Positions 5,344 through 36,987 of a stretch of 64,000 bases of DNA are shown here, piece after piece. The stretch covers positions 1-64,000 of IMG/VR virus record IMGVR_UViG_3300011008_000041. One strand, 5' to 3'. Made by a program: the position numbers and the translations under genes. This DNA comes from a virus. Taxonomy: Duplodnaviria > Caudoviricetes. Position 1 is the stretch's first letter. Every line of letters starts with the position of its first letter. The notes under the pieces were generated by a model, which ran no database searches, was not told the DNA's origin, and was given only the letters and a program-made list of their open reading frames with translations.

Positions 5344-5866
5344 CGGTTTTTCCTTTCTCGCTCAGCAAGGCATGATCCTTGCTGGTCAGCTGGTTTGATT
5401 GTCGGGCTAACGCCTTGTAGATTTTTCGGATTGTCTCGATCCTCCATATTTGGGTTGTCTGCCCGTTGAACTCATGCTCCTCAAACAGGTTTTGCGGTCC
5501 ACCCATAGCGTCGATAACCGCCTTGGTCTTACTATCCGCTGGGAGCTTCTCGTACATTTCTTGGGTAGAACCATACAAGCTGGTATATGACCGTATGTGG
5601 CCGAACACCGCATCCGCTCCTTGCTCGAGTTCTTTTGTTACATCTTGTGCGGCGGTCCGAAATTCTGCGATGCTTGGAGGAAATACACACTCCTTGCACA
5701 CGCGAATAACAGCCTGCTGGCCTGTCCAGAAATCAACATCATCTAGGCACGTCGCCCACAAGGAAATTGTTGGCCCGAGTTTCTGAATGCCGCCCTTAAA
5801 CATTTCTGCCCTCGGATAGGCAAGCATCAGAACAGAGAAGATCTCCGTTACTTCCTTCCTGGTCAT
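5336..5866 (-). CDS. helicase loader/inhibitor (G39P-like)
   Basis: LMLAYP..LWATCLDDVD..FPPSIAEFR pattern directly after the replication initiator. Confidence 0.7.
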   Translation of the reverse strand: MTRKEVTEIFSVLMLAYPRAEMFKGGIQKLGPTISLWATCLDDVDFWTGQQAVIRVCKECVFPPSIAEFRTAAQDVTKELEQGADAVFGHIRSYTSLYGSTQEMYEKLPADSKTKAVIDAMGGPQNLFEEHEFNGQTTQIWRIETIRKIYKALARQSNQLTSKDHALLSEKGKTDG

Positions 5867-6735
5867 TTGTCTTCCTCGTCAAACAGTTCATGGAGTTCCC
5901 TCAAATCGTCCATAGCATCGTGATCCTTTTGTGTGGAGCAGGTCGCCTGCTGACTTTGCCTGTCGTCGTAGTTGCCCTCGAGTACTTTGGGAAAATTGTT
6001 CGGTTTGACAAACCACTCAAACGTAATCATCCATCCGTCCCGGTTTTGCCCTTTTAGGAAGGAGCTATTTCTGATTTTTTCAATGGCGGACAGAACTGTA
6101 TCGACCCCGTATTCGTTCACGCGAGCCCTCAGCATACTGCCGCGCTTCGATTCACTCGTGACCTTGACCAGCTGTTGTAACCCGAGCGAATTCCATGCCT
6201 GTACAATGCGTCGGACATCCTTTGTCCGACAAACAAACCCGTCAGGGTTTGTAGAAACATCTTTCTCTTTCTCTGTATCTGTATCTATCTCTAACTCTTT
6301 ATCTATCTCTATATCTTGGGGACAACCGGGGGACAATCGGGGGACATTGTCCCCCGTATCGTCCAAACTGCGCTGTTCCCGTTTTCGCTTCGCCGCATAC
6401 GTCTCGCTGTCCAGAAGCTTTGCAACTTCGGACATGAACAGCGTCTTATCGTCGAAGACCTCAACCATGCCGAGTTCTTCAAAGAGCTTTAGCGCTGTGC
6501 GAACAACATCAACATTCGTCTTTGTCACGCTGGCCAGCATTTGCTCGTTGTATGGGATGGTATCGGAGAAACGAAGGGCACCTTCATGGTCAATGCTTTC
6601 GAGCATGAGCTTGAGATAGAACAGGACATAATCCTTGCCGTTTGGCATATCCTCGATCACGGTAATATCGTGGCGTTTGAAAAAATCCCGATGGAGCTTT
6701 AGCCAGTAATACCGTTCCTTATCGCGTGATGCCAT
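5863..6735 (-). CDS. phage replisome organiser/replication initiator
   Basis: RYYWLKLHRDFF..NGKDYVLFYLKLMLES N-terminal domain; ITFEWFVKPNNFPKVLEGNY C-terminal motif. Confidence 0.9.
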   Translation of the reverse strand: MASRDKERYYWLKLHRDFFKRHDITVIEDMPNGKDYVLFYLKLMLESIDHEGALRFSDTIPYNEQMLASVTKTNVDVVRTALKLFEELGMVEVFDDKTLFMSEVAKLLDSETYAAKRKREQRSLDDTGDNVPRLSPGCPQDIEIDKELEIDTDTEKEKDVSTNPDGFVCRTKDVRRIVQAWNSLGLQQLVKVTSESKRGSMLRARVNEYGVDTVLSAIEKIRNSSFLKGQNRDGWMITFEWFVKPNNFPKVLEGNYDDRQSQQATCSTQKDHDAMDDLRELHELFDEEDK

Positions 6736-13064: not shown

Positions 13065-13634
13065 TTAATCATAGGTTTCGCGGGCTTCCATCTGCTTTAC
13101 ACCGCCCTCCCAGCAATCGCGGCAGTATACACCGGCGAAGTACCGGCCCGCGATCTCGGCGGTGCTGATGATCTTCCCGCATTTTGAGCAGGGGATATAA
13201 CCCTCGCAAAACTGCTTGGTTTGCTCCTCGATCCACTCGATGAAGTCGTCAGTTGGCGGTTGGCTCATGCTACGGATCGTAAACTCACCGATATGTCGGT
13301 CGAAGTCATCCCACAAGGAAAACAGGCCAGCATCTAGCCGTATTCCTTTGTGCGTGTTGTGGTAAACGGAGAACTTGAACCGCTTGTTTTCTCGGATAAG
13401 GTAGAACTCGTGGTTGCCAAGGTTCATTTGCATGAGCTCGTTCCGCAGGGCGTGAACCTTGTCCAGCATTTCAACGCCCTCATCCCATGTCACCCCGCAG
13501 CGCTGCATTTCCCGAAACACATTCCTGGGATAGATCTGTTTCGTTACGGTGTTGAACCAGGGGTAAACAGGCAAGCCGACAAAGAGTTCCTGCCAGATAC
13601 TCTCGATCAGATTGGCTTGTTTAGTCCGCTCCAT
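13065..13634 (-). CDS. hypothetical protein with C-terminal Zn finger
   Basis: CSKC..CRDC; RBS before MERTK. Confidence 0.65.
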   Translation of the reverse strand: MERTKQANLIESIWQELFVGLPVYPWFNTVTKQIYPRNVFREMQRCGVTWDEGVEMLDKVHALRNELMQMNLGNHEFYLIRENKRFKFSVYHNTHKGIRLDAGLFSLWDDFDRHIGEFTIRSMSQPPTDDFIEWIEEQTKQFCEGYIPCSKCGKIISTAEIAGRYFAGVYCRDCWEGGVKQMEARETYD

Positions 13635-14193
13635 ACTTCGCCTCCATCTTCTCGATGAATGCATCGACCTGAGCGGTGACCCAGTCCTGGACGGTCTCAT
13701 AGCCCTCGGCCTCGATGTACCTCTGTAACCGCAGGAACTTGTCATCCGGGAGTCGCCCCGCAACACGGGCTGTATACCTATGTCTGCCGCTCCGGTGCTT
13801 TTTCGTCGGCGTGGAAGCGGTCTCATGAGGCGGCGCGGGTTCATCTTCAATGCGGGTCACTCCCGATCCTCCGCAGGGCGGGAGGGGTGGCGCCGGCTCT
13901 TCGGCTGGCACGTTGGCAATGTTGTCCCGAAGAATGGCAAAACCGCCAGGATGAAGTACACAGCCGTACAGGTTCGGCCGGGTGCATTTCGATACGACGG
14001 TTTTATCCAACTTCGGATAGTGTGATCGCAGAAGCCTCGTCGCGTCCTTGGGCGTCAGAGAAGCCGCGTTGATCGCGCCTCTCAGGTCATACCGTTTGAC
14101 AGCGGCATCGAACTCTGCTAAGATGTCTGTGGGTTTACTAGCCTTGGGGTCGTTGTGTGCCAGCACAGCGGCCTCGTTTTCTTTTGTGATCAT
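13621..14193 (-). CDS. hypothetical (possible DNA-binding) protein
   Basis: Coupled ORF; C-terminal RHH-like segment. Confidence 0.6.
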   Translation of the reverse strand: MITKENEAAVLAHNDPKASKPTDILAEFDAAVKRYDLRGAINAASLTPKDATRLLRSHYPKLDKTVVSKCTRPNLYGCVLHPGGFAILRDNIANVPAEEPAPPLPPCGGSGVTRIEDEPAPPHETASTPTKKHRSGRHRYTARVAGRLPDDKFLRLQRYIEAEGYETVQDWVTAQVDAFIEKMEAKYGAD

Positions 14194-14639
14194 GCGATAT
14201 TCTCCTGACTGATGTTGTCCATAGCCTCGAACACCGCGGCCAGCTCCGAGAGCGCCCGGTATTTCGCCTTGAATGCCTCAAGCTCTTCCAGCGCGTTCGT
14301 CAGAAGTGCCTTGCGCAGTTCCTCGTTGCTCATGGCCGCATAAAGGGTCGTGTAGCCCTTTTCCGCATGAACGAACTGTCGGACCGGCGTATCGTCCGCG
14401 GCCTCCTGGACAGTAATGTTTCGGATGATGTACTGTGCCTGCACAGTGCGAAATCGCTCCGCAGCGACACGATCATCCCACTCGAACAGAGCGTGAAGCG
14501 GAGCGTCCTCCGCACGGCTGGCATCAACCACCGCCTGCGGTGTCAGTGTCCCGTCCTTGCTCTGGTCCCTGATGCGGTTCAGCTCGGCGACCGCCGTTTG
14601 AACCGGTACCTTCATCGGGATCTTCCATTGATAGGTCAT
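14190..14639 (-). CDS. conserved protein immediately downstream of the GGY-NN array (putative accessory factor)
   Basis: Strong RBS (agaaaggagg); LTPQAVVDASRAEDAPLHALFEWDDRVAAERFRTVQAQYIIRNI motif. Confidence 0.8.
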   Translation of the reverse strand: MTYQWKIPMKVPVQTAVAELNRIRDQSKDGTLTPQAVVDASRAEDAPLHALFEWDDRVAAERFRTVQAQYIIRNITVQEAADDTPVRQFVHAEKGYTTLYAAMSNEELRKALLTNALEELEAFKAKYRALSELAAVFEAMDNISQENIA

Positions 14640-14678
14640 TGGGGTTTCCTCCTTTCTTTCAGATTTGCTCTTCACGGC

Positions 14679-15819
14679 GCGCCTAAACTAGCCGTGCCTC
14701 GGCGACCCAAACCACGCCTGCCCATCCGCTCCGGACCGCACCACAACGCATCATTCCAAACCACGCCTGCCAAACCGAACCCTTCCGATCCCATCCGCAC
14801 CGGACCTAACCTTGCCTGCCATACCACGTCCACCCTCGGCTCTACCGACCTCGCCATCCATGCCTGCCAGCCTTGCCATTCCGTACCGCGCCGAACCTTG
14901 CGTCAACGCGCCATGCCGAGCCGCGCCTGCCATAACGTTCCCTTCCGGGCCCAACTCTGCCTTGACAAGCCATGCCAGCCAGTCCACACCTGAGCATGCC
15001 GTTTCCCACCGGAACTGACCTCGCCTTGCCCGCCATGCCTCACAGATCCAAAGCGAACACTACCGAAGCCAACCATGCCCGCCGCGCGTAGCCACCTCGT
15101 ACCGTAACTAGCCTCAGCAAACCGGGCCTGCCATGCCCAGCCATGTCCCGCCTTGACGTTCCGAACCTGAACGGACCATGACTGCCAAACCGCCCGTGCC
15201 GTACCGGGCGCAGCCTACCCGGACCATGCCAGCCGTACCGTACCAAAGCCCACCACAACAAGCCGTGCCATGTCACACCGGAACTGCCTTGCCTGGACGT
15301 GCCTGACCTCGCGTCGACTTTCCACGCCTAGCCTAGCCTGGCAAACCGTACCGAAGCTCATCCAACCGGAACCAACCGAGCCCCGCCTAAACCCGCCTGT
15401 CATATATGTACCGAGCCCAGCCCCGCAAAGCCGTTCCACAACTGGCCCTTCCTTGCCTGCCGCACCGAGCCTTTCCAGACCGTGCCTAGCCCCAGCGAAG
15501 CATGCCCCGCCTGCCGCACCGAGCCGAACCTTGCCAAACCCCGCAAGACCCAGCCTAAACAGAGCGAACCGTGCCTTGCCTGCCTTGCCGGACCTAGCCG
15601 GGACAAACCGGGACTTGACACACCTAGCCTGCCGGGCCATTCCACGCTCTGCCACGACGCACCGCTCAGGACCACGCCATTACGTGACTTGCCTTGCCTG
15701 CCAGTCCATGCCATAACGAGACGCGCCAAGCCCCGCCATCCTTACCCTGACCGCCGTACCGAACCAATCCAGAACGGGCCCAGCCAAACCGGAACATGAC
15801 TTACCCAGCCGTGCCTGTC
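14679..15819 (-). ncRNA. array of about 21 putative guide RNAs built from GGY-NN pentamers (VIPR-like)
   Basis: Strict 5-nt periodicity (plus strand NN+RCC-like triplet), broken every 8-13 pentamers by a 4-nt unit (tgcc/agcc/cgcc; GGCAGGC on minus). Starts 7 nt after the RAMP stop; no credible ORF. Confidence 0.85.
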
Positions 15820-15825
15820 GCGGAA

Positions 15826-16494
15826 TTACTCGATATGAAACATTCCTGACTGCCCGGATTTCTCGACACGCCACTCACCGATGCCGCAGACCATCCCGGC
15901 AGCGTTGATCATGTTCACGATATTCTCCAGGGAATACTGGCCGTTCTTGTTGTATTTCAGGATCACGTCTGTGCTCCAATTGCGGAACTCGCCGCGGTAA
16001 CGGAGATCGGCGGTGCCAAGGCCGACTTTGACCATATCCTCGCGCATGATCGGGGGGTCGCTAATGATCTCCAGCATGTCGAGGCCGCTATCCCCGAGTT
16101 GGCCGACGCCGTACAGGAAGAACGCACCCTGCAGGGAGACCTTGTCCTTCGACCACCCCATACGATAGGCGGCGCTTATCGCAGCCTTTTTGAGTCCGAC
16201 CACAGGGAAACCAAACCGGGCACCCTTGGCGATGGCCTCCTCAAACGCCTCCTCGGTCATTTCCGTGGGCTTCTCGGTGAGCCAGTACATGGAGTTGATG
16301 AAATCCTCGACGGGGTTCTTTACGGGCTTCTTCTTGCCCTTCGCGAGGCCCATCTGCGCCTCCAGCATCTGCCGCTTGGCCTTCTCGCTCCAGCAGTGGA
16401 CGATCAGGGGCGTGTCACCGACGATATGAAGGGTGACCTGGGCCATGTCCAGAGGGCGAACTTCAACGATCTCATCATTCTTCTTGGTTGCCAT
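15826..16494 (-). CDS. stand-alone Cas7/RAMP-like protein (Vipr-like), 222 aa
   Basis: RBS+ATG at 16494; VTLHIVGDTPLIVH strand, FGFPVVGLKKAAISAA helix (cf. IPGSSLKG), C-terminal Gly loop GMVCGIGEWRVEKSGQSGMF. No other cas genes in the window. Confidence 0.8.
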   Translation of the reverse strand: MATKKNDEIVEVRPLDMAQVTLHIVGDTPLIVHCWSEKAKRQMLEAQMGLAKGKKKPVKNPVEDFINSMYWLTEKPTEMTEEAFEEAIAKGARFGFPVVGLKKAAISAAYRMGWSKDKVSLQGAFFLYGVGQLGDSGLDMLEIISDPPIMREDMVKVGLGTADLRYRGEFRNWSTDVILKYNKNGQYSLENIVNMINAAGMVCGIGEWRVEKSGQSGMFHIE

Positions 16495-17479: not shown

Positions 17480-17707
17480 TTAGGCGCATTTATGCGACTT
17501 TTGAGACAAAAAAATAGCGATTGCTTCATCCGTGGTCAGATCCAGAACTTCGCACATCTTATGTATGTCCCTTATCTGTAGGCGACCGGAATTCAGGCGT
17601 CTCCTTAAAGTTGCGCGATCAATGCCCAATTCTTCTGCCAAGACCTCTTGAGTGATTCCACATTCAACGATTTTTGCCTGCAATTTCTTTATATCGATTT
17701 GATACAT
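17480..17707 (-). CDS. Cro-like HTH regulator
   Basis: ITQEVLAEELGIDRATLRRRL HTH; divergent from the repressor. Confidence 0.85.
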   Translation of the reverse strand: MYQIDIKKLQAKIVECGITQEVLAEELGIDRATLRRRLNSGRLQIRDIHKMCEVLDLTTDEAIAIFLSQKSHKCA

Positions 17708-17723: not shown

Positions 17724-17840
17724 GTAGCATTTTTGCTACTTCTTGGTTAAACATTACACCACAGCGAAACAAAAGTCAATACAAATGTCGCAATTTTGCA
17801 ATATCAAAATGTTGCAATTTTGCCCCACGCCTGTTATACT
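17724..17840. promoter_or_regulatory. lysis/lysogeny switch: divergent promoters and three GCA(A/T)TTTTGC operators
   Basis: Minus TTGACT-17-TAATGT (17779-17751); plus TTGCAA-17-TATACT (17812-17840); palindromic boxes at 17727, 17790, 17814. Confidence 0.7.
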
Positions 17841-17870
17841 ATATACAACATGCACGGGGTGGTGTTACTT

Positions 17871-18206
17871 ATGACTACAGGCGAACGGATCAGAGAGCGA
17901 AGAAAGGCTATAGGTATGTCGGCAGATACTCTTGCCGAGAAGATCGGTCTGTCAAGGTCTACCATTTTCCGTTACGAGAACGGTTTCATTGAGAAAATGC
18001 CAATAGAAAATCTGGTGCCAATAGCGCGAGCCCTCCGAACGACTGTTGGCTATTTAATGGGATGGGAAGAAGAAGCACCCATCACCGGCGCCGATGATGA
18101 GTGCGAAAAAGAAGCTATGCAATATTTTGAGGCTCTTTCAGAGACTCGCAAGGCCGAGGCTCTGAATTACCTTCGATATCTTGCAGTGAACGAAGATAGA
18201 AAATGA
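17871..18206 (+). CDS. CI-like XRE repressor (no obvious S24 peptidase domain)
   Basis: MTTGERIRERRKAIGMSADTLAEKIGLSRSTIFRYENG. Confidence 0.9.
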   Translation: MTTGERIRERRKAIGMSADTLAEKIGLSRSTIFRYENGFIEKMPIENLVPIARALRTTVGYLMGWEEEAPITGADDECEKEAMQYFEALSETRKAEALNYLRYLAVNEDRK

Positions 18207-25246: not shown

Positions 25247-25639
25247 ATGACGATAGGTGAAAGAATCAGGTCCGTACGAGAAGCGGCGGAAATGTCGCAG
25301 CAGGAACTGGCTGAACGTGTAGGTGTTCTTTACCAAGCCATCAGTCAGTGGGAACGTGGAGTGCGGTCACCAAAATATCAATCACTACTAAAAATCGCGG
25401 ACGCTCTCGATATTGACGTAACGGAACTAATTACAGGAACAAAATCCGATCTGCATCCGCAATCCGATCAGCGCCCGTGTGCAATTTGGCAGGGCCACAA
25501 CGTAATCGGCTACATCGGTCTGACCAAACTTCAACGTGACACACTCAACGCCATACCGGGCATCGGCTGCTATTTTGGTAGCGACCCGTTGACCAATCCG
25601 GAGATGTATAGCAATACAGATGACACCATGGAGGATTAA
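25247..25639 (+). CDS. XRE-family HTH protein
   Basis: MTIGERIRSVREAAEMSQQELAERVGVLYQAISQWERG. Confidence 0.85.
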   Translation: MTIGERIRSVREAAEMSQQELAERVGVLYQAISQWERGVRSPKYQSLLKIADALDIDVTELITGTKSDLHPQSDQRPCAIWQGHNVIGYIGLTKLQRDTLNAIPGIGCYFGSDPLTNPEMYSNTDDTMED

Positions 25640-25642
25640 CAC

Positions 25643-25855
25643 ATGACCAAACCCACCATCCACTTCAACAGCCGCGGGGAGAGCGGCAATATCTTCTGGA
25701 TCCTGGGGGCGGTCAAAACCGCCCTCCACAAACAGCGGAGGATCACCGACTATAACAACCTGCGCGACCGTGTGACTGCCTCCGGCTCCTACAACGAGGC
25801 CCTGTCTATCATCCGGGAATACGTCGATTTGGTAGACGATGACAGCGAAGTGTGA
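25643..25855 (+). CDS. small conserved protein
   Basis: GESGNIFWILG..SYNEALSIIREYV. Confidence 0.7.
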   Translation: MTKPTIHFNSRGESGNIFWILGAVKTALHKQRRITDYNNLRDRVTASGSYNEALSIIREYVDLVDDDSEV

Positions 25856-25987
25856 CAGACACCTCCTGATTACCCTCTCTCGCCCTCTCCGTTGCGTTGC
25901 AACGGCGTTCTTCGAGACTTCCCCTATAGTTACATGGTATGGAAGAAAAGCACGAGGGAACGCAAAGAAACGACACAAAACGAAAAA

Positions 25988-26023
25988 ACACCCCTCCCGA
26001 TCGCAATTGATCGAGAGGGGTGT
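25988..26023. terminator. hairpin between the convergent early and lysis transcripts
   Basis: acacccctc..cgatc..gatcg..gaggggtgt preceded by an A-run. Confidence 0.6.
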
Positions 26024-26106
26024 AGTCATAGGAGCCTCGTAATTATTTTACGAGGCTGTTGCGAGGTCGTTACGAGGTTGCAAGGTTGTTGCAAGGTTTT
26101 GAAAGG

Positions 26107-26244
26107 TTAATCGCTGATACCGCTACCGCCGTCTTTGTGCTTCCAATAGACAAGCAGACACACAATCCCGAACACAGCTGCCAAAGCCACGACGCAGCCG
26201 ACAAAGCCGCCGATCAGGAACGCCCACCATGACCACGGGCTCAT
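26107..26244 (-). CDS. small single-TM protein after the endolysin (45 aa; not in ORF track)
   Basis: MSPWSWWAFLIGGFVGCVVALAAVFGIVCLLVYWKHKDGGSGISD. Confidence 0.5.
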   Translation of the reverse strand: MSPWSWWAFLIGGFVGCVVALAAVFGIVCLLVYWKHKDGGSGISD

Positions 26245-26246
26245 GA

Positions 26247-27746
26247 TCAGAACCCAAGCTTGGCGAACTCGCCGCGCGTCTGATCTCCGACGATGCCGTC
26301 CACCGTGATGCCACGAGCCGCCTGGAAGCGCTTGACCGCGTCACTGGTGTCTGTGCCGTACTCGCCGTCGATCCCGTAGGACCCCACGGAATAGCCGAGG
26401 GCCTCCAGTGCGTACTGGATAGCCTTCACGCCGTCATGCCGCTTGCCGTAGCGAACAAGGCCCGTGGTGGCGCTGGCACGGCCATAAGGATAGACCACCA
26501 CAGGGACGACAATAGCTTCGACCTGAGCAACCGTCAGGCCATTGAGACCAGCGTTCAGCATAATCGCCGGATAGTCCTTGTACGCCAGATCCATGTCGCA
26601 GTTGCCGGCGATGCCAGCGACCTTACCCGTGCTGCCATACTGCCAGATACCGCAGCTCTTGGACGGTGCGGACACGCCCCAATGAGCGAGCCAGAGGTCG
26701 AACTGCGTCAGCTTGGAGAAGCCGCGGTTCAGGTAGTCCCAGTTGGTGTAGTTTACGGCGTAATAGCCGCGCTGCTCCACACGGGCGAGGAAAGTGTCAG
26801 CAAGGGCCACGATGTCGGGCGAATACCCAGCGGCCTTGGACTTGACATCAGAGTCATACTCGTAGTCAAAAGCCAGAGGGAACGTGACGGGCAGTCCAAG
26901 GCTCTCCACAGCGTCGCAGAGGTAGTCTGCCTCAGCACGAGCCATGTCCTTGGTATAAGCATAGGAGAACCAGTAGAAGCCCACATGGACCCCAGCCTTG
27001 ATAGCTCCTAGCGCATTGGCCTTGAACTGCTGGTCGATATGGCCCACACCATAGCCGGCGCGGATCATAGCGAACGCCACGCCGTCGGCCTTGGCCTTCT
27101 GCCAGTCGATAGTACCCTGCCAAGTGGACACGTCCACGCCCTTCGCGGGCAAAGCCAGCACCGCGTCGGCAAGGTCCTGAGTCAGCGACTCCGTGGCAGG
27201 CTCCGCCTCCGCAGTCTCCTCGTCCTCCCACATGGGGCGCCCGTAATCGGCGATGTAAGGATCCCAGCGGGAATAGGTGCAAACCTGAACGCGGTTGCCT
27301 TTGTTGCCCTCGATGATCGTTACGGTGGCGTCATCGACAGCTACCACGCCGCCAGTATGGACGATGCTGCCACCCTGCTGGAAGAAAGCCTGATCGCCCA
27401 CCTCCGGCGTGGTATACAGCCGCCCGTGGTCACGGTAGTAGCCACGGCTCCACGGGCAACCAGCGCCGTATAGAGTGCCGATCTGGAACTGCATCGTCTG
27501 AGCCTTATCGGCGTCGCCGCCGCAGGCCTGAAGCAGGCACCAGTCATAGAACATATCGCACCATTCAAAGCCCTGCTTGGACGCCTGGTAGTAACCAGCC
27601 TCGGCCAGATCTCTGGCGTACTTGGTGTAATTGTTGGAGCCGGCGTTCGCGGCCTTGTCGTCTAGGTATGCGTTGGAGGCCTTCTCGTAGTAGCCGACCT
27701 CACCCTGCATAACCGCGACCATCTTCTTCGCAGTCACCTTACTCAT
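26247..27746 (-). CDS. endolysin: CHAP + GH25 muramidase + peptidoglycan-binding domain
   Basis: EWCDMF..HTGGV..IIEGN (CHAP); GVDVSTWQG..FDYEY (GH25); VKAIQYAL..DGEYG..AVKRFQ..DGIVG (PG_binding_1). Confidence 0.9.
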   Translation of the reverse strand: MSKVTAKKMVAVMQGEVGYYEKASNAYLDDKAANAGSNNYTKYARDLAEAGYYQASKQGFEWCDMFYDWCLLQACGGDADKAQTMQFQIGTLYGAGCPWSRGYYRDHGRLYTTPEVGDQAFFQQGGSIVHTGGVVAVDDATVTIIEGNKGNRVQVCTYSRWDPYIADYGRPMWEDEETAEAEPATESLTQDLADAVLALPAKGVDVSTWQGTIDWQKAKADGVAFAMIRAGYGVGHIDQQFKANALGAIKAGVHVGFYWFSYAYTKDMARAEADYLCDAVESLGLPVTFPLAFDYEYDSDVKSKAAGYSPDIVALADTFLARVEQRGYYAVNYTNWDYLNRGFSKLTQFDLWLAHWGVSAPSKSCGIWQYGSTGKVAGIAGNCDMDLAYKDYPAIMLNAGLNGLTVAQVEAIVVPVVVYPYGRASATTGLVRYGKRHDGVKAIQYALEALGYSVGSYGIDGEYGTDTSDAVKRFQAARGITVDGIVGDQTRGEFAKLGF

Positions 27747-27939
27747 GATCGTCAACCTCCGGCAGTCCCGCCACGCTCGTCAGCAGAGACAGGACGCCCG
27801 CCAGCACCGCGGCGCTCGCCACGTTGATCCAGTTCACGTCCCCAAGCAGGGCAGACGTGCCGATCATGGCCACAGCGGTCTGGGCGACGGTCTTGATAGC
27901 GCGGACACCCGCAGCCTTGATCCAAGTGGTTTTCTTCAT
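27739..27939 (-). CDS. holin (r1t family)
   Basis: WIKAAGVRAIKTVAQTAVAMI..SLLTSVAGLPEV. Confidence 0.9.
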   Translation of the reverse strand: MKKTTWIKAAGVRAIKTVAQTAVAMIGTSALLGDVNWINVASAAVLAGVLSLLTSVAGLPEVDDHE

Positions 27940-28989: not shown

Positions 28990-30060
28990 CTATGCGGCTT
29001 TCGGCATGGCCATACTGTGTTCCCTCACAACATCTTTCAGCACCTTCGCACTTATTGGGTCGAAATACTTCACCCGGATATTGTAAGAGTTGCAATGCTT
29101 GAGCTGCCCCGCACGGGATAGGAGCCCTGACGCAGAGTGGAAGGGTATCTTCCTGCCCTCGTCGATCATGCGCTGTACGCGCCGGCACTGCTGGGCATAG
29201 CGAAGGAAGTTCCTGCGGCGGAGTGTTGTATGGGAATGGTAGAACCGGAATCCGACAAAATCAATGCCGCGGGCATCGACCGGGAACACCTGCCAGTTTT
29301 CTTTCAGGCGCAGGCCGAGGCCAGAGAGGAACGCGGCTATGGACTTCCTGGCCTTGTGGAGCAGCTTTTTGTTCGGCCCCATCAAAACCATATCGTCCAT
29401 GTTCCGAGTGTAGTATTTCACCCCTGGGAGCGTGCAGATATGACGATCCAGCGGTTCCAGATAGAAGTTCGCCAGCCATTGGTTGATATAGAAGCCAATG
29501 GCGAGCCCGCCGTCTGAATTGGAGGTCATGATATCGTACACGGTTTTCAGGAATAGCTTATCCTTGATCTTCCGGGCCAGCGCCCAGATCAGACGCCGTG
29601 GCGAGATTGAAGGATAGAAGTGCTTGATGTCCATCTTCAAGCAGTATTTTGTGCCCTTATGGTCATTCCGCAGGGCACGGCGTACATAGTTCATGGCGCA
29701 TTTGTTCCCGCGTCCGGGGATGGATGCGCAGGACCAGCGGTACATACCACGCATGAGGATGTCTTCCATGGCCATTACGCAAAGTTGGTGCATAAGACCG
29801 TCAGGATAAAACGGTACGATCTGTATCGTTCTCTCCTTCATGCAAGTACGATCAAATATCACCTTTGATCGAGGCGTGGTTGGGATATAGGAGCGTGTCA
29901 TCAGCATTTCATAGGCTTGATCGACATAGCTTTCCTCGTCGGCCAGCACGATCTTTACATCCCAGCGATTACGCTTTCCTCGTGTCCCTTCGCGGATAGC
30001 GGCGCGGATCATGTCCTTGTCACACATCCGCTCATAGATGTGGCCCACTCTATGGGGCAT
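28990..30060 (-). CDS. DGR reverse transcriptase (356 aa)
   Basis: RBS aggagg before ATG 30060; CLKMDIKHFYPSI, GLAIGFYINQWLAN, YYTRNMDD, GIDFVGF. Confidence 0.95.
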   Translation of the reverse strand: MPHRVGHIYERMCDKDMIRAAIREGTRGKRNRWDVKIVLADEESYVDQAYEMLMTRSYIPTTPRSKVIFDRTCMKERTIQIVPFYPDGLMHQLCVMAMEDILMRGMYRWSCASIPGRGNKCAMNYVRRALRNDHKGTKYCLKMDIKHFYPSISPRRLIWALARKIKDKLFLKTVYDIMTSNSDGGLAIGFYINQWLANFYLEPLDRHICTLPGVKYYTRNMDDMVLMGPNKKLLHKARKSIAAFLSGLGLRLKENWQVFPVDARGIDFVGFRFYHSHTTLRRRNFLRYAQQCRRVQRMIDEGRKIPFHSASGLLSRAGQLKHCNSYNIRVKYFDPISAKVLKDVVREHSMAMPKAA

Positions 30061-30180
30061 AGGGCATTCCTCCTTGTTTGCCTCAAGGCCGTTCGAGAGT
30101 GAACCTACTAAGCCCTGTCCTGACGGCAAGATTTTTACCGAGCGGTATGGACTTATCTGCGCACGTGTGCGTGAGAAAAC

Positions 30181-30317
30181 AAGGTGTCGGGAGCCGAGGT
30201 TCGCGTTGGTGTTCGAGGCCGCGTTGTTGGCGTTGAAGTAGAAGAAGCCATAGTTATCGTTGCTGTTATAGTTGCCGCCAACGTTCAGCGCTTGGTCGCC
30301 GGTGTTCGAGTTGACGT
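30181..30317 (-). repeat. DGR template repeat (TR), 137 bp
   Basis: Aligns without gaps to 30574-30710; AAC-rich; 15 of 16 mismatches are at TR adenines. Confidence 0.95.
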
Positions 30318-30533
30318 GAACACCCAGCAGAACGGGCTCGCATGGCGCAAATAATCCCGCAGGGGATGATAGCACACATTCTGCTGGTACGCTTGAAAAT
30401 GGAAAAGGTTTACACACAGGTGTCGGTGTATTACGCCAAGCGTAATTTTTGAATTTTATAAAACGTGGGGCTCCGCCCCACACCCCGGTTAAGGGGTGCA
30501 TACGAGGACGGAGCCACAGCGTTTTAACGAACC

Positions 30534-30555
30534 TCCGGGGGTTGCGACCCCCGGA
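30534..30555 (-). other. DGR target-recognition hairpin downstream of VR/IMH
   Basis: 9-bp stem tccgggggt-(4 nt)-acccccgga a few nt after the target stop. Confidence 0.8.
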
Positions 30556-30561
30556 CCCCCG

Positions 30562-33500
30562 TTAGGGGATATAAAGGAGTCGGGAGCCGAGGAACGCGCT
30601 GGTGTACGAGGCCGCGTAGTAGGCGCTGAAGAAGAAGAAGCCAAAGTTATCGTCGCTGAGATAGACGCCGCCAACGTTCAGCGCTTGGTCGCCGGTCTTC
30701 GAGTTGACGTAGTCTGGGACATACGTACTCGCAGAGCCTCCCGACGCTGCATCAGGAATGAAGGCGTACGGGCACTCTTCGCTGTAACCAAAGCCAGTAA
30801 TATACTGTGAAGACGGGAGTGTAATACCCGTCTCAACGAGTGCACTCTTGTTATCGGCAAACGAGGCATTGTCCAGACTGGTGTATACCGCTCTGCTGGA
30901 TGCCATAAAGCCATCCACCCAGTCACGCACGTTACTGAACGGATCCTCGACCCATCGGTACTGGTTATGTGCGCCATTGAGTTTCAGCGTGTGATACGCC
31001 GCGCCGGTCGTGCCGCCGCAGTTGCTGATCGAACCCGTATTCCAGCCCGTTCCAAGAGTATTCTGGCTATGGAAGTTGGCAAACTCGACCAAGTAGAGCA
31101 TCTGCAGAGCCGACCACGAGGCAATGTCCAGCATGTACCAATTCGTACCCTTGTTATGGGAGTAGGTGCGGAAGTTGGTACGGGTGGTGTTCACCAACAG
31201 TGCCGCACCGGATTTGGAATAGACCGCCGAGGAATCACCGGAAGTATGGAAGCGGCCAATATACCGCCCGGAGCCGGGATGCTTCACAAAGCCGGTCTTT
31301 GCAGTCGGCGAGATTGCCCACATCCACTTGCTGTTTGCGGTGTCCTTATAGGCGGTGTAGTAGAACTCCGGGATGTAGACCACGGTATCGTAGTCCGTTT
31401 CCGAGAAGCCTGCGTCATCTTCGGAATAGGAGATTGCACCGTCGATGACGTTGTACCGCTTCATGCCGCTCCACGGCAGGATGTTGTCAAACGGAGAGGA
31501 GCCGGATCCAGCAAGGGACGTGGCCGGCGAAGGATCGGAGAACGAGGCCGCAAGGCCGAGCCTTGTGAGGGCGGGGCTGGAATTGGCGTAGTTCCATTCG
31601 ACGCCGTATGCGCCGTCTGCGCTGGTGGCGGTGGGAACCTCCACATTGCTTGCCGCCTTGAACTGCGCGTAGCAGGATGTATTGGCGGTGATGTTGGTGT
31701 TGCTGGGGTTCCAACCGATGAACGTGCCACCGTTGGGGTCAACAGGGGTCTCTCCGGTATAGTTTGCGGTGCCTCCCGAAGTGACGCCCGTAACGGTCTG
31801 CAAAAGGGTCGTGCCATTGTAGAAATAGACCGTGTACGTCACGATGTACGACGCTGTGTAGGTGGCGTTGCCAGTAACTGTGGTGACTGTCGGTGTCCAC
31901 CCCTGGAACGAACCGCCGCCCGACACCGGATTCTGAGGCGTGGAGCCGTTATAGGTGGGCGTCGCACCATACGGGACGTTGGTATCGGTCTCAAGCGTGG
32001 TGCCGTCGCTGTTCTTCCAAGTAATCGTGTACGTCCGCACCGTCCAGGAATAGGCCGCGTAAACGGTACGATCCTCCAGGACGTTGGTCGTGCACCCGCT
32101 TTCCGCTGTCTGCTGGTCCTGCTGAGTGTTCCAGCCAACAAACGAATAAGAGTACTGCGCAGTCGAACTTCTGGTGGGGGCGGTCGGCGCGCTCTCCTGC
32201 GGGACGCCATCAATGCAGGTGACAGTCTTCAGCGTCGAGCTGCCGTCATAGGTCTTGTAGGTCAGGTAACTTGTGGTGTGATCAGCCGTCACGGACAGAT
32301 AGGGATAAGCCTCAAGTCTGGTGTTGATCGCGGCGAGTTCGGCTCCTGTGAGGGAGCTGGTATGAATGGTGCCGGACACCTGGGCCGTGTCCATGTTGTT
32401 GCCATATTCATCCAAGCCGCGCATTACATCGAGCTTGTCGAGCAGGGCGTTGATCTCCGTAGCACCCGCCGCTTCCCACGCAAGCCCAATCAGACGCACA
32501 CGGGAAGCCGCAGGGATCGCGTTCAGGATTGCCTTGCTGTTAACCGCCGAGCTGACGTTCTCCAGCCACAAAGTAGAGATATTGGAGTAAGACGGGATGG
32601 TAAAATCCGCAATCGCCGTCTGATTGCGGATGGTCAGGTTGGTGATCGTAGAAGGAAGATGCAGCACTTTCAGAATGCCGCCGTTCGGAAGATCAATACC
32701 GGTGATGACCGTGCCGTCGAAGTACACGTTCTCGATGTTGGCGCAACCCGAGATATCCACCGACTTCATATCGCCAGTGCCAAGGCCGGCGCAGTTACGC
32801 ACATCCAGCGTGCGGAGCAGGGTGTTATTGCCAAGGTACAGCTCTTTGAGGTTGCCGTTGGAGTAGGATCCGGAACTATCGCCGAGCTTGATGCTCTGCA
32901 ACTTTGTGGCCATGCTGAAATCAGCAAAGCCGACTTTCAAACCAGAGAGGTCACCCACGGCCGCAAGCTGAGACGCAGAGTAGATGTAGATTTCGGTATC
33001 GTTCACGTTATCCAGCGGGCAGATAAGCGTGTATGCCTGATTGCGCGTGGCGCGGGTCTGCACGAGGTAAGAGCCGTACTTCACCGAGGCGTACACGTCA
33101 GCATACGGGGTAACGGTGATGTTCGACTTCGCGTAGCCGCGGAGCTGGATCACGTCGCTCTGTGCGTCGCCGGCGTTGTACTTCGAGTCGATGTAGCGGA
33201 AGCGGTTGTAGAGCCACCATTTGCGCTGTTCGGCCTTCGAGCCCTGCAGCATGGCGAGATACGCGCCGGAGCCGTCCTCGACCAAAGGTGCAAGGTATTT
33301 GAACCAGGCGTCTTCATTGAAGACTGCCTCGCCCCATTTCTCCTGGTGTTCCTCAAACGCGGTCTCGACCCTCGCATACGACAGCGCCCCGCTCGAGCGA
33401 AGCGTCTGATACATAGCCTTGATCTCGTCATAGAAGGCCTGACGCATGTTGATCCAGAGGACAGACTGCTGACCATTGAAGACATCTGCGCCGCCCGTGA

Positions 33501-36500
33501 TGGTGTCGATATCCTCCAGGTTGTAGGAGAAAACGAGAGCGCCCTCGTTGTTGATACCAAGGGCGGTATCGAAGTCGTAGGGGAGCCAGCACCATTTATC
33601 GCCGCTGAGCTGGGACGGGAAAGCGTTCTTTGCGCGGCTGTCGACCATCAGGAAGAGCTCGGTGAACAGGTAGTAGAAAATCGTACTGTCCATCTCCATA
33701 TGATCTGCGGCCTCGGCCTTAAACTTCGCCAGCCGGTACGCCGCTGTATCATTGGTGTAGGTAACGGCATCATCGCCGGTTCCGTAGGTAACAGCGCTCG
33801 GCAAGGCGTTGCCGGTCGCCGCGCTCTGATCGGTGGATTTCAGCCACGTTGCTAGTGCAGAGAGCTTTGTTGCGTCGGTATAGGCCGGGTCGGTATCAGG
33901 GTAGCGAGCCTCGAAGTCATTGAGCCATCCATCCCCCGTGTAATCATCACTCTTCCAGAGTACGCGATCGCTGGTGTTGTTCTTGATCTCCCACGACTCG
34001 TCGCCGGAAATAAATCCGAACACTTCTTCGGTGCCCTTATCATTATTGAAGTTGTATTTGCCGAGGAACGTTGTGGTTTCGCCGTTGCTCCAGAAGATGA
34101 CGCACGGGAAGCCGTCGATGCCTTGCCTGACGGCACTGTTCTGCTCCTGTGGCGGCGTCTTGTACGGACAGGCGTCGTTGTAGAGGATCGCCAGCTCGAC
34201 GTTGTTAGCGCCCTCAGAGCTTGCCACGTCAGCTTTCATACAAAAAGCGTTGGTAGCAATAGCGCCCGGGCGCAGGGAGTATGCGCTTGCCAGAGTGCCG
34301 CTGTTCAGCAGGAAGCCGCCCTTGAATTTCAACTTATAGTTCTTCCGGGCGTAGTACTGCGAGGACGTACCTTGGACATCAGCCTGGACATTCGTGGCCG
34401 TGAAGCTCTTGGAGGGAGTGACCGGGTCAACATAGGTAACAGCTACCGTCCGTTTATCGCCCTTGTACTGCGGGAGCTCGTCGCACTCGATTATCATGTA
34501 AGGAAGATCGCTGGGAAGCTGTGCGATCACCACATTCCCATAGGCATCGTAGATGCTGTTGCGGTTATACCGCGCAATCATGTCATCCACGTTCTGGCTG
34601 TCGGCAATCCAGTTTTCAAGCACCTGATAGCGAGTCAGGTCGTTGTCATAGATGCGAATGCGGTACACGTCGATGGTGCAGTCATTGGAGCCGATGGAAA
34701 TGCCGACCGGGGTGGTCTGTGCGAAGTCATCCGAGGCCGGATACTGAACCACGCCGCTCATGATGCCGTTCACATAGATATACAGCAGGCGGTTTTCGCT
34801 GCGCTTCTCAGCCACGAAAGCCAGCCGGACGTGCTCGTTCTCCTTATACTGCATGCTGATCTCCGACTGCTCGGAGGTCAGCGTCGCTTTCTGTGCCGTC
34901 ATGGACAGGCCACGACCACCGGAGAGACAGGACAGGATCACGGCATCGTAATTCATGACGTCCCGCGTGGCAAATTCGACCTCGATGGTCTTGCCGGTTC
35001 CGCGGAAGTCGGAGCCGAAGATCTGATAGGGAATCGTGACGCGGGCGTCGCCCGCCACACGCAGGACGGTAACGCCGTCCTCGTCAAGCAGCCAGCCGTC
35101 CGAGGAGAAGTTGAAGCCCGTCATGGTGGCAGCAATGTTGTTGTCGCCGTCCGTCCATGTGCCGGGATTTGCCTCGTTGTTACTGCGTCCCACACTGGAC
35201 AGATGAAGCACAAGGTTCTGGGTTTCAGCTTCTACGTTGATATCGCTCTCGGTGATCGTTACCGTGATGGTCTTCCGCGCGGTTCCGGATGCAATAACAA
35301 CCGTCAGGCTCCCCGCCGTGTCTGCGCGATATGCGAACACCTGTTCCGTGCGGTCTACCGTCTGCTGGGAGACCTGAGAACCGTTCACAGAGATCGTTGC
35401 AACCGCCGTCAAGGACGTTGGATCATACACGGTATATCCGATGTTCAGCGTACTGTACTGGATTGCTGTGCTCTTGTTGAACGAGGATACGATGATCGGA
35501 GTATTGTTCAGCGCTTCAAGGCAGATGATCTCGTAATACAGGTGGTTGGACTCAACCGACTCACCGTTGATTACGCAGTCGAAATAGCACTCAAGGGTGT
35601 GCGCTCCGTGGGACTGCTGCGGGATCGTGTAGGTCATCTGTCTGCCGGATACCGAGGTTGACGCGGTTCCGATCTCCCTGCCGTCCAGCAGGAAGCGCAC
35701 TGTCTTCTGCACCTCGCCAACCGGCGTGTACGGGAAGCTGATCGCGCCCTGATACGGCGTGGAGGCGTCAAAGGTCGAGCTGATCGAAACAGCGACCACC
35801 GTAACGGAGAAGTTGATGGTCCGGCTGTTGTCGTATACGTCGCTGATTGTGACCTTGATCACGTTGGCGCCGGAGGAACAGTATGCAGCAAGGTCGATGT
35901 TGACCGTGCCCTGCTGGATGTTCAGCATGGCCTTGACCGCGCCGTTTACGGTGATCTTCGCCGTTCCGTCACCCGTGGGCATACCGTCCTCCTCGGAGGA
36001 CCAGACAACCGTGATGGGAGCTGTGCCATCCTCGGCAATGGTCTTCGAGAGCCAGCCGGTGTTGTTGGTGACGCTGAGGGACGCGGTATTCCCGGATGAC
36101 CCGCCGCCACCACCGCCAGAGCCCGAGAAGGGGCCAAGAGGACCGGCCACGACTTCGCCATTCGACGTCAGATAGAGGTAACCGTTATCGACATAGGCAT
36201 CATCGACCTTGCCCTCGATCACCAGCTGCATAGCCGCGTCGCTGCGCCGAAGGGCGGCAACAGCGTTATTCAGTTCGGCAACCTCGTTCTCCGCGTTGTT
36301 TGCCGCGGACAACGCCTGTGCTGCCTTGGTATTTGCGTCAGTCGTGATGTTGGCGATTGCCTGCGCCTTCTCATCGATCTGCTCAATGGCATCGTCAATC
36401 TTCTGATCGAGAGACGTTTCTTTTCTCTCGATATAGACAATGGCGGCATTCTTTGCCGCTACAGCATCGTCCGCAGAGCCCTCCGCGTTTGATGCAGCTG

Positions 36501-36987
36501 TCTCCGCACGGGTAGTCAGCGCCGCGATATCCGCGACCGCGTCCTCTGCCTGCTGACCAGCGGCAATGATTTCGGCGGAATTATCCAGCACGTTCACGAG
36601 CTCGCGGATGACGGACTCCGACGCGAGGGTATCCTTATCCAGCGCGGCGCGTTCGATATGCAGGACGAAATTGGCGGTGTTCAGCTCCTTCCCGTTGTTG
36701 AACAGGGTGAGTTCAAAAACGCCGTGCCCCGCAGCCGCCGTCATCTGCTGATCACCGGTAACGGTGACTATGGCGTTGGCCACATCCACCGTGGCATTGA
36801 CGGAATACCCGTTGCCATCCGGCTTTGTGCCTCGGATTTGAGCCGTGGTTCCACTCTGGATTGTGAAATTCCCCTGACGGGAAACCAAATGAATACGGAG
36901 GCTGAAATCACTGTCGTACTGATTCAGCCTCCGCTCCACTTTCGCCCCGCCCGGAACCATGTCCAGGTCAAATGCGTGAATGATCAT
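30562..36987 (-). CDS. 2141-aa tail fibre/receptor-binding protein, DGR target
   Basis: BppU-like N-terminus, CotH-kinase-like middle, LRR-like segment, InlB-B-like repeats, C-terminal C-type-lectin-like domain carrying VR. Confidence 0.9.
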   Translation of the reverse strand: MIIHAFDLDMVPGGAKVERRLNQYDSDFSLRIHLVSRQGNFTIQSGTTAQIRGTKPDGNGYSVNATVDVANAIVTVTGDQQMTAAAGHGVFELTLFNNGKELNTANFVLHIERAALDKDTLASESVIRELVNVLDNSAEIIAAGQQAEDAVADIAALTTRAETAASNAEGSADDAVAAKNAAIVYIERKETSLDQKIDDAIEQIDEKAQAIANITTDANTKAAQALSAANNAENEVAELNNAVAALRRSDAAMQLVIEGKVDDAYVDNGYLYLTSNGEVVAGPLGPFSGSGGGGGGSSGNTASLSVTNNTGWLSKTIAEDGTAPITVVWSSEEDGMPTGDGTAKITVNGAVKAMLNIQQGTVNIDLAAYCSSGANVIKVTISDVYDNSRTINFSVTVVAVSISSTFDASTPYQGAISFPYTPVGEVQKTVRFLLDGREIGTASTSVSGRQMTYTIPQQSHGAHTLECYFDCVINGESVESNHLYYEIICLEALNNTPIIVSSFNKSTAIQYSTLNIGYTVYDPTSLTAVATISVNGSQVSQQTVDRTEQVFAYRADTAGSLTVVIASGTARKTITVTITESDINVEAETQNLVLHLSSVGRSNNEANPGTWTDGDNNIAATMTGFNFSSDGWLLDEDGVTVLRVAGDARVTIPYQIFGSDFRGTGKTIEVEFATRDVMNYDAVILSCLSGGRGLSMTAQKATLTSEQSEISMQYKENEHVRLAFVAEKRSENRLLYIYVNGIMSGVVQYPASDDFAQTTPVGISIGSNDCTIDVYRIRIYDNDLTRYQVLENWIADSQNVDDMIARYNRNSIYDAYGNVVIAQLPSDLPYMIIECDELPQYKGDKRTVAVTYVDPVTPSKSFTATNVQADVQGTSSQYYARKNYKLKFKGGFLLNSGTLASAYSLRPGAIATNAFCMKADVASSEGANNVELAILYNDACPYKTPPQEQNSAVRQGIDGFPCVIFWSNGETTTFLGKYNFNNDKGTEEVFGFISGDESWEIKNNTSDRVLWKSDDYTGDGWLNDFEARYPDTDPAYTDATKLSALATWLKSTDQSAATGNALPSAVTYGTGDDAVTYTNDTAAYRLAKFKAEAADHMEMDSTIFYYLFTELFLMVDSRAKNAFPSQLSGDKWCWLPYDFDTALGINNEGALVFSYNLEDIDTITGGADVFNGQQSVLWINMRQAFYDEIKAMYQTLRSSGALSYARVETAFEEHQEKWGEAVFNEDAWFKYLAPLVEDGSGAYLAMLQGSKAEQRKWWLYNRFRYIDSKYNAGDAQSDVIQLRGYAKSNITVTPYADVYASVKYGSYLVQTRATRNQAYTLICPLDNVNDTEIYIYSASQLAAVGDLSGLKVGFADFSMATKLQSIKLGDSSGSYSNGNLKELYLGNNTLLRTLDVRNCAGLGTGDMKSVDISGCANIENVYFDGTVITGIDLPNGGILKVLHLPSTITNLTIRNQTAIADFTIPSYSNISTLWLENVSSAVNSKAILNAIPAASRVRLIGLAWEAAGATEINALLDKLDVMRGLDEYGNNMDTAQVSGTIHTSSLTGAELAAINTRLEAYPYLSVTADHTTSYLTYKTYDGSSTLKTVTCIDGVPQESAPTAPTRSSTAQYSYSFVGWNTQQDQQTAESGCTTNVLEDRTVYAAYSWTVRTYTITWKNSDGTTLETDTNVPYGATPTYNGSTPQNPVSGGGSFQGWTPTVTTVTGNATYTASYIVTYTVYFYNGTTLLQTVTGVTSGGTANYTGETPVDPNGGTFIGWNPSNTNITANTSCYAQFKAASNVEVPTATSADGAYGVEWNYANSSPALTRLGLAASFSDPSPATSLAGSGSSPFDNILPWSGMKRYNVIDGAISYSEDDAGFSETDYDTVVYIPEFYYTAYKDTANSKWMWAISPTAKTGFVKHPGSGRYIGRFHTSGDSSAVYSKSGAALLVNTTRTNFRTYSHNKGTNWYMLDIASWSALQMLYLVEFANFHSQNTLGTGWNTGSISNCGGTTGAAYHTLKLNGAHNQYRWVEDPFSNVRDWVDGFMASSRAVYTSLDNASFADNKSALVETGITLPSSQYITGFGYSEECPYAFIPDAASGGSASTYVPDYVNSKTGDQALNVGGVYLSDDNFGFFFFSAYYAASYTSAFLGSRLLYIP
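30574..30710 (-). repeat. DGR variable repeat (VR) at the 3' end of the tail fibre gene
   Basis: VNSKTGDQALNVGGVYLSDDNFGFFFFSAYYAASYTSAFLGSRLL vs TR VNSNTGDQALNVGGNYNSNDNYGFFYFNANNAASNTNANLGSRHL. Confidence 0.95.

Follow-up and report, generated by a model that had tools for sequence, protein, structure and literature searches.

VIPR, first described in 2026, is a CRISPR-like RNA-guided DNA silencer (bioRxiv 10.64898/2026.04.26.720920). In the published systems a phage-encoded minimal RAMP protein, Vipr, acts with vrRNAs made of alternating GGY trinucleotides and NN dinucleotides, one protomer being bound per repeat. The GGY bases are hidden and the NN bases pair with DNA, so that every third target base is skipped; natural targets are mostly coding sequences, in which the skipped base is usually the wobble base, and the outcome is transcriptional silencing of competing mobile elements (10.64898/2026.04.26.720920). 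Here we describe a locus of this kind in IMG/VR virus record IMGVR_UViG_3300011008_000041 (Duplodnaviria; Caudoviricetes), positions 1 to 64,000 of which, 64,000 nucleotides in all, make up the window that was analysed. The segment at 15235-15284 of its vrRNA array is very probably one VIPR guide of a temperate Firmicutes-type phage, aimed at the operon encoding a DUF2815 single-stranded DNA-binding protein (SSB) and the DNA polymerase PolA in competing phages, which it would silence.

The sequence features by which a VIPR is recognised are all found at this locus, and in each of them it resembles the type II systems of Escherichia phage SUSP1 and a Pseudomonas fulva prophage (10.64898/2026.04.26.720920; structures in 10.64898/2026.04.26.720927): a homologous Vipr RAMP, conserved GGY-binding residues, an array of GGY/NN pentamers, targets read with a 1-nt wobble skip and lying in competing elements, no self-target, and a small accessory gene (vap) adjacent to vipr. 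In contrast, however, type II guides are separate vrRNAs of ~100 nt whose 3' end bears an invariant tail or pseudoknot, and no such discrete vrRNA is found here, where ~22 guides abut within 1.14 kb. The array also lies between vipr and vap, unlike in SUSP1 and P. fulva, the presumed host is of a Gram-positive gut or rumen type, and the targets, in the published cases a satellite recombinase or regulators of lysis and lysogeny, are here an SSB and polA replication operon. The locus is accordingly classed as a VIPR system whose array is staggered and tail-less, and not as type II, because its guides abut, no tail sequence is repeated between them, and 4-nt units alone separate them. In this respect it is like the staggered vrRNA arrays of fig. 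S18 in 10.64898/2026.04.26.720920, in which guides also abut, each beginning where the last one ends, with an offset of one nucleotide between neighbours; the likeness is one of architecture as described there. The staggered arrays of that preprint appear to be known from sequence analysis alone, whereas the delimiters of the present array are supported by targets, the complementarity of two guides ending exactly at the 4-nt units.

The system also recalls the Cas7 backbone of class 1 CRISPR and CRISPR interference, in which a RAMP filament is likewise laid on a guide RNA with periodic base flipping and binding that is programmable and blocks transcription. Unlike class 1 CRISPR, it is phage-encoded, has neither cas1/2 nor a repeat-spacer array, and leaves three of every five guide bases and one of every three target bases unpaired.

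The array occupies a non-coding tract, at about 14680-15820, between the vipr gene and the conserved accessory gene, and begins 7 nt past the vipr stop codon. On the plus strand this tract is 42% C, with an autocorrelation of C at lags 5, 10 and 15 of 0.46, 0.43 and 0.37; it is the sole pentamer-periodic tract in the window, no other 300-nt stretch of the 64 kb reaching 0.25. Since both flanking genes are on the minus strand, that strand is taken as the RNA sense, in which the units read GGY-NN. A dynamic-programming parse resolved ~22 in-phase pentamer runs; the 4-nt units that divide them are GGCA in most cases, and at each the phase moves by one. No repeated tail or ribozyme lies between the guides, the architecture termed 'staggered', and a search of the array against Rfam at the gathering threshold matched no family, hammerhead ribozymes included. 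The tract directly after vipr was pentamer-periodic in 27 of 31 related IMG/VR loci; the four without a tract above threshold were a truncated contig, a locus with a vipr-vap gap of ~85 nt, and the two most distant homologues. A coding reading of the tract was rejected, its periodicity being 5 and its open reading frames (ORFs) overlapping in all frames. Elsewhere in the array, the run at 15343-15457 consists of 23 in-phase units with a degenerate centre (ATA-TA TGA-CA, RNA sense), and probably represents two guides with an atypical boundary between them.

The plus strand of 15235-15284 resolves into ten NN-RCC pentamers (GT-acc GT-acc AA-agc CC-acc AC-aac AA-gcc GT-gcc AT-gtc AC-acc GG-aac), which bears out the NN string GT GT AA CC AC AA GT AT AC GG of the original prediction. 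In RNA sense the NN string is the reverse complement of GTxGTxAAxCCxACxAAxGTxATxACxGG, and under the one-base-skip rule the latter spells V-V-N-P-T-K-V-I-T-G; several of the intervening GGY units are degenerate (GTT, GAC, GCT). Phase-shifting 4-nt units flank the segment on both sides (Table 1), so that the ten units form a discrete guide and not an arbitrary slice of the array, and the GGC-A unit on its 5' side recurs at most guide boundaries. The next in-phase dinucleotide past the 3' delimiter, which would be the eleventh (CA on the plus strand), matches only 1 of 111 targets; complementarity thus stops where the punctuation of the array ends the guide.

Targets were sought with the exact 10-NN pattern (GTNGTNAANCCNACNAANGTNATNACNGG). 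In 596 Gb of prokaryote genomes it matched 20/20 bases at three places, against ~1.1 expected by chance from the size of the collection, and all three were in frame at the start of an ORF, at codons 4/5-13/14. The encoded proteins begin M-S-K-K-VVNPTKVITG in a Hespellia sp. metagenome-assembled genome (MAG) and M-T-K-VVNPTKVITG in two Erysipelotrichaceae MAGs, in each case on a prophage-like contig; Hespellia is a genus of the Lachnospiraceae. Two of the three ORFs were tested and belong to PF10991 (Enc34_ssDNA-bd; 254 and 226 bits, cut-off 26); the third runs off the end of its locus.

The rule by which the guide is read was examined in IMG/VR with the 8-NN core that spells NPTKVITG. In its real order and with a 1-nt skip the core gave at least 114 matches, compared with 37 when the order of the dinucleotides was reversed under the same skip, and with six each when the real order was combined with a 0-nt or a 2-nt skip. 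Among the 114 matches listed, 108 fell on a single N-terminal site (..VVNPTKVITG.. or ..NPTKVITG..) of ORFs of ~180 codons; these 108 sites match 8-9/10 NN of the full guide, 28 of them 9/10, and so reach the 80% NN level used for VIPR targets. All nine core-match ORFs tested were PF10991 (E 1e-59 to 1e-82), which brings the target ORFs tested to 11 of 11, at 199-274 bits; the PF10991 profile itself begins at the T of NPTKVITG. From the counts by order and skip, together with the pile-up at one site, it follows that the 1-nt skip rule holds for this guide and that its target is the DUF2815 N-terminus. The original prediction had read the guide as the N-terminal motif of DUF2815, a gp2.5-like SSB, and DUF2815 genes are indeed what the top matches contain, in three of three exact and 108 of the 114 listed core matches.

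The 108 sites represent 70 distinct 23-nt sequences, whose pairwise identity at the skipped positions is 39%. In the order of the Hespellia MAG, the Lachnospirales, PF10991 is present in 62 of 401 genomes, and 7 of the 30 best PF10991 loci reach 8/10 NN at the N-terminus in this sample, which was chosen by the Pfam model and not by the guide. The guide thus covers a sub-clade of DUF2815 and not the whole family.

The original prediction had further suggested that matches of this guide would co-occur with those of a guide to polA, within the same replication module, as in the targeting of one competitor clade. All offsets of the array were tiled as 8-NN patterns against 117 loci that had been selected solely by their DUF2815 match, and two places responded: the SSB guide, by construction, and 14868-14893, at a guide that spells FIVADFSAIEA. 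The latter is punctuated like the SSB guide: in RNA sense GGCA precedes it and GGC-T follows. Across the 117 loci it matches 11/11 NN in 23, 10/11 in 21 and 9/11 in 24, or 68 loci at 9/11 or better; most of the loci below that level are short. The site always lies 1.7-3 kb downstream of the DUF2815 site on the same strand, and falls near codon 414 of about 677 in ORFs which, in 4 of 4 cases tested, were PF00476 DNA_pol_A (70-76 bits against a cut-off of 34.3). The Hespellia contig offers an example: 1.8 kb downstream of its exact SSB site is a match of 20/22 bases to the polA guide. The predicted co-occurrence is therefore found, with a second guide directed at the same module. When the dinucleotide order of either guide was shuffled (10 times for the in-phase 11-dinucleotide string), no match was left in the 117 loci. 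Most other guides of the array had no match in the flanks of these loci either, and the guide at 15634-15698 (G-I-T-L-T-A-A-G-T-x-V-F-F, called SNF2-like) reached 20/26 at best.

The same Hespellia sp. MAG holds, at C13:58761-60616, C124:11379-13388 and C159:44601-45137, three DUF2815 genes and two polA-guide sites, with 1 and 2 mismatches, and thus contains several targetable prophage-like elements.

The carrier genome, a complete virus of 72,096 bp with terminal repeats, offers no comparable site to its own guide. The best match of the SSB guide in the 72-kb genome is 15/20 bases, below 80% NN, and the exact 10-NN pattern had no match in the window with up to 3 mismatches. No PF10991 gene is present in the carrier genome, and no family-A polymerase turned up among the window ORFs scanned, no search having been aimed at PF00476; the SSB of the phage itself is a classical PF00436 protein, and its replication genes further include a replisome organiser and a G39P-type loader.

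Conservation of the guide was followed in related phages. It is identical in one sister phage (L200/L201) with a 98% identical Vipr. In another (L198/L199; L198:5204-5265), with a Vipr likewise 98% identical, it carries one NN change (AC to AT, RNA sense) that would replace the first V by I/M, together with a GGT-to-GGA change and a 1-nt deletion in one GGY. The I/M change fits IMG/VR alleles such as K-I-V-NPTKVITG, and this copy may represent either diversification towards another DUF2815 allele or decay. In the 31 related IMG/VR VIPR loci both the SSB and the polA guide were absent, the best matches being 14/20 and 15/22. As far as these sequences go, guide content is common to sister phages only, as would be expected of hypervariable guides.

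The assignment to VIPR was supported by analysis of the Vipr protein. A phmmer search of the PDB with the single sequence gave one significant match, to the entry 36pp, 'SUSP1 Vipr protein' (E 3.1e-5), and a profile of 17 Vipr homologues found the same entry at E 1.6e-9; the relationship is distant, with only 57-65 residues alignable. In SUSP1 Vipr, as published, the two guanines and the pyrimidine of GGY are held by R138, C173, D177, W178 and R179, and these align to R167, C203, E207, W208 and R209 of the present protein, the first as the thumb Arg and the others as a G-loop of the form C-x-G-D/E-W-R, in which the change from D to E is conservative; the equivalent of SUSP1 H17 fell outside the alignment. 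Among the 17 homologues R167, E207, W208 and R209 are invariant and C203 is kept in at least 90%. An AlphaFold2 model (predicted local distance difference test, pLDDT, 80.7) was compared with known structures by Foldseek, and the matches listed were Cas7-family RAMPs only (Csm3, Cmr4, Cas7-11 and type VII Cas7), the best E being 1.7e-5 and the template modelling (TM) scores about 0.45-0.5. The protein matches phrog_4652 and belongs to a family of 7153 homologues at E<=1e-3, relatives being found in 2 of 401 Lachnospirales genomes. When Vipr was compared by tblastn with isolated phages, distant homologues only were found, in Gordonia and Mycobacterium phages and in one cyanophage. The Gordonia phages UmaThurman, Pipp, ODay and Ecliptus and many Mycobacterium phages (e.g. 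Donkeykong gp49) encode 'hypothetical proteins' that are 28-38% identical to Vipr over the full length, and on this similarity cultured actinophages may carry related VIPR systems.

The candidate vap gene is syntenic downstream of the array, with a homologue in 29 of 32 related loci, and its product matches phrog_15946. It had no match to a Pfam family or to a PDB sequence, and Foldseek gave E>1. The model, with a pLDDT of 93, combines a small alpha/beta domain with a helical hairpin, and structural alignment by VIA-align gave Z 5-6, none above 6.2, with weak winged-helix-like rows among many helical-hairpin rows.

From the observed array anatomy, Vipr homology, targets, skip rule, co-targeting and lack of a self-target, a course of events can be proposed in which RNA expression, processing, filament formation and silencing follow the published work on SUSP1 and P. 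fulva. The minus strand would be transcribed as an early operon of vipr, array and vap, and the transcript coated by Vipr, each run between 4-nt units forming its own filament or being processed to a vrRNA. As in SUSP1 and P. fulva, one Vipr protomer would sit on each GGY, hiding its bases and presenting the ten NN. The vrRNA, antisense to the SSB coding strand, would then pair through its NN with two of every three bases at codons ~5-14, the wobble base being skipped. An R-loop-triplex filament would form at the 5' end of the SSB gene, the first of the operon, and block SSB-polA transcription in competing phages or resident prophages, and the polA guide would add a second block in the same operon. 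Reading is confined to codon positions 1-2 of a conserved motif, so that a single guide can cover many synonymous variants and escape requires a change in the protein.

The principle of a guide that reads codon positions 1-2 of a conserved stretch in a gene of a competitor has a published precedent in SUSP1 vrRNA4, which acts against a satellite recombinase and from which synonymous drift likewise offers no escape (bioRxiv 10.64898/2026.10.15.759431). The SUSP1 guide is directed at one satellite family of one host genus, whereas the guide described here reads a family-wide DUF2815 motif in more than 100 viral contigs and in Hespellia and Erysipelotrichaceae MAGs. The VIPR preprints (10.64898/2026.04.26.720920, 10.64898/2026.04.26.720927 and 10.64898/2026.10.15.759431) make no mention of DUF2815, SSB or DNA polymerase targets, and the target class is thus a new detail. 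With this locus VIPR, so far modelled in Escherichia coli and Pseudomonas, reaches Firmicutes-type phages of gut or rumen, and the SSB-polA replication operon joins its natural targets. Because complementarity ends exactly at the 4-nt delimiters, the locus also supports the view of tail-less staggered arrays as made of discrete guides. The reach of the wobble-skipping code is illustrated by a single 10-unit guide that covers at least 70 different contiguous sequences in more than 100 viral contigs, the known principle being unchanged.

A broader proposal can be offered only tentatively, namely that the array is a motif-level, family-wide silencer of the replication module across several Firmicutes families, in which the 4-nt units alone define independent Vipr filaments without tails, ribozymes or a processing enzyme. 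If true, a single temperate phage, reading codon positions 1-2 of near-invariant motifs (the DUF2815 SSB N-terminus and FIVADFSAIEA in polA), would switch off this module in an entire class of phages.

Several observations weigh against the interpretation of the segment as a working guide to the SSB-polA operon of competitors. The exact 10-NN pattern has no match in IMG/VR, where 9/10 NN is the best. Among the alternative architectures, small-RNA sequencing confirmed only ribozyme-interspersed arrays and single-vrRNA systems (10.64898/2026.04.26.720920). A scan of the minus strand for sigma-70-like promoters and terminators gave nothing useful, and Pfam, PDB, Foldseek and VIA-align found no recognisable DNA-binding or nuclease domain in the candidate vap. 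The host of the carrier is known by inference only, so that a host in common with the target phages is an assumption, and the sole host label among the names in the Vipr cluster is that of a homologue binned to an 'Alistipes sp.' MAG.

As to the role of the system, its target could be the same and its purpose different, if the prophage expressed it in lysogens for superinfection exclusion of DUF2815-polA phages, instead of its serving to attack resident prophages while the phage grows lytically. A serine recombinase and a divergent pair of cI-like and cro-like genes, arranged as in sister contigs, mark the phage as temperate; as mentioned above, DUF2815 is widespread enough in the Lachnospirales, a candidate host order, to occur in 62 of 401 genomes, and a plasmid-borne VIPR protects cells from lambda (bioRxiv 10.64898/2026.04.26.720920). 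Against this, the cro-like gene stands upstream of vipr, array and vap in one minus-strand run that also includes the replication genes of the phage, an arrangement that predicts expression in the lytic cycle and makes early lytic expression likely, and the minus-strand scan detected no separate promoter for the system. Lysogen defence is thus the less likely role, though by no means a negligible one.

A different outcome, in which the target DNA is destroyed or nicked as in type III-V VIPRs, appears improbable. Nuclease- or helicase-type vaps do occur in some VIPR types (bioRxiv 10.64898/2026.04.26.720920), the 149-aa vap has no Pfam match that would reveal its function, and the genes further downstream (13621-14193, and one for a 680-aa DUF8224 protein) are possible partners. 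However, the vap has no match in any nuclease or helicase family; its model shows instead the small alpha/beta domain, weak winged-helix-like similarity and helical hairpin described above, and the nuclease-bearing types are reported to be host-encoded in defence islands, whereas the present system lies in a phage early operon.

It is very improbable that the guide is a relic no longer in use, or that the array is not processed into a ten-unit guide. The deletion and substitutions in the L198/L199 copy and the degenerate GGY units in that of the window could be taken as decay, but the copy is identical in the L200/L201 phage, exact present-day targets exist, and internal GGY degeneracy is frequent in functional vrRNAs according to the VIPR preprint. 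Finally, that a degenerate two-of-three-base reading of a long array will always find some motif by chance is suggested by the sub-pattern of the first 8 NN, which gave 26 heterogeneous, chance-like IMG/VR matches, none in DUF2815, and by the failure of most other guides to match the 117 loci, but can be set aside in the face of three out of three exact matches on the same codons of one gene family where ~1 was expected anywhere, counts at least threefold over the reversed order and 19-fold over other skips, 95% of the listed matches at one site, complementarity that begins and ends at the phase-shift delimiters, and an independent guide to the neighbouring polA.

The coordinates of the locus and its regulators are given in Table 1. 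Other genes of the carrier are of Gram-positive type, among them an endolysin with GH25, CHAP and PG_binding domains, the G39P-type loader, the replisome organiser (Phage_rep_org_N) and SleB-type hydrolase domains, and point to a Firmicute as the host. A megablast search of isolated phages with 20 kb of the window gave no match.

Table 1. Positions in the window of the VIPR locus, its two target-matched guides and the neighbouring regulatory genes
Feature	Position	Strand	Remarks
cI-like gene	17796-18206	+	helix-turn-helix; divergent from cro-like gene
cro-like gene	17480..17707	-	helix-turn-helix; head of early operon holding vipr, array and vap
vipr	15826..16494	-	222-aa RAMP protein; PDB sequence match to SUSP1 Vipr; Cas7-like model
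vrRNA array	14676..15822	-	~1.14 kb; ~22 abutting guides of 7-13 (or more) units each
5' delimiter of VVNPTKVITG guide (RNA sense)	15285..15288	-	4-nt GGC-A (TGCC on +); shifts pentamer phase by one
VVNPTKVITG guide	15235..15284	-	GGY-NN units in RNA sense: GTT-CC GGT-GT GAC-AT GGC-AC GGC-TT GTT-GT GGT-GG GCT-TT GGT-AC GGT-AC
3' delimiter of VVNPTKVITG guide (RNA sense)	15231..15234	-	4-nt GGC-T (AGCC on +), then GGCA at 15227-15230
FIVADFSAIEA guide	14873-14927	-	eleven NN: TT AT GT GC GA TT TC GC AT GA GC; family-A DNA polymerase
candidate vap	14190..14639	-	149 aa; syntenic downstream of array; ribosome-binding site at array end

Three further elements were observed outside the VIPR locus. 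The replisome-organiser gene (5863-6735) contains tandem repeats at 6259-6346, in units of 18-24 nt and of 11 nt, which are probably an iteron-type origin of the phage. Short tandem repeats (GTTGCAAGGT-like, units of 11-19 nt) at 26058-26108 separate the ORF at 25427-26029 from the endolysin gene at 26247-27755. Lastly, within 28990-36987 on the minus strand, an RT-18 RNA (Rfam RF03021, 72.9 bits) at 30070-30147 lies in or beside a 503-aa RVT_1 reverse-transcriptase gene, and the two adjoin a 2141-aa protein with a CotH domain; the arrangement suggests a diversity-generating retroelement with a large tail or receptor-binding protein as its target.

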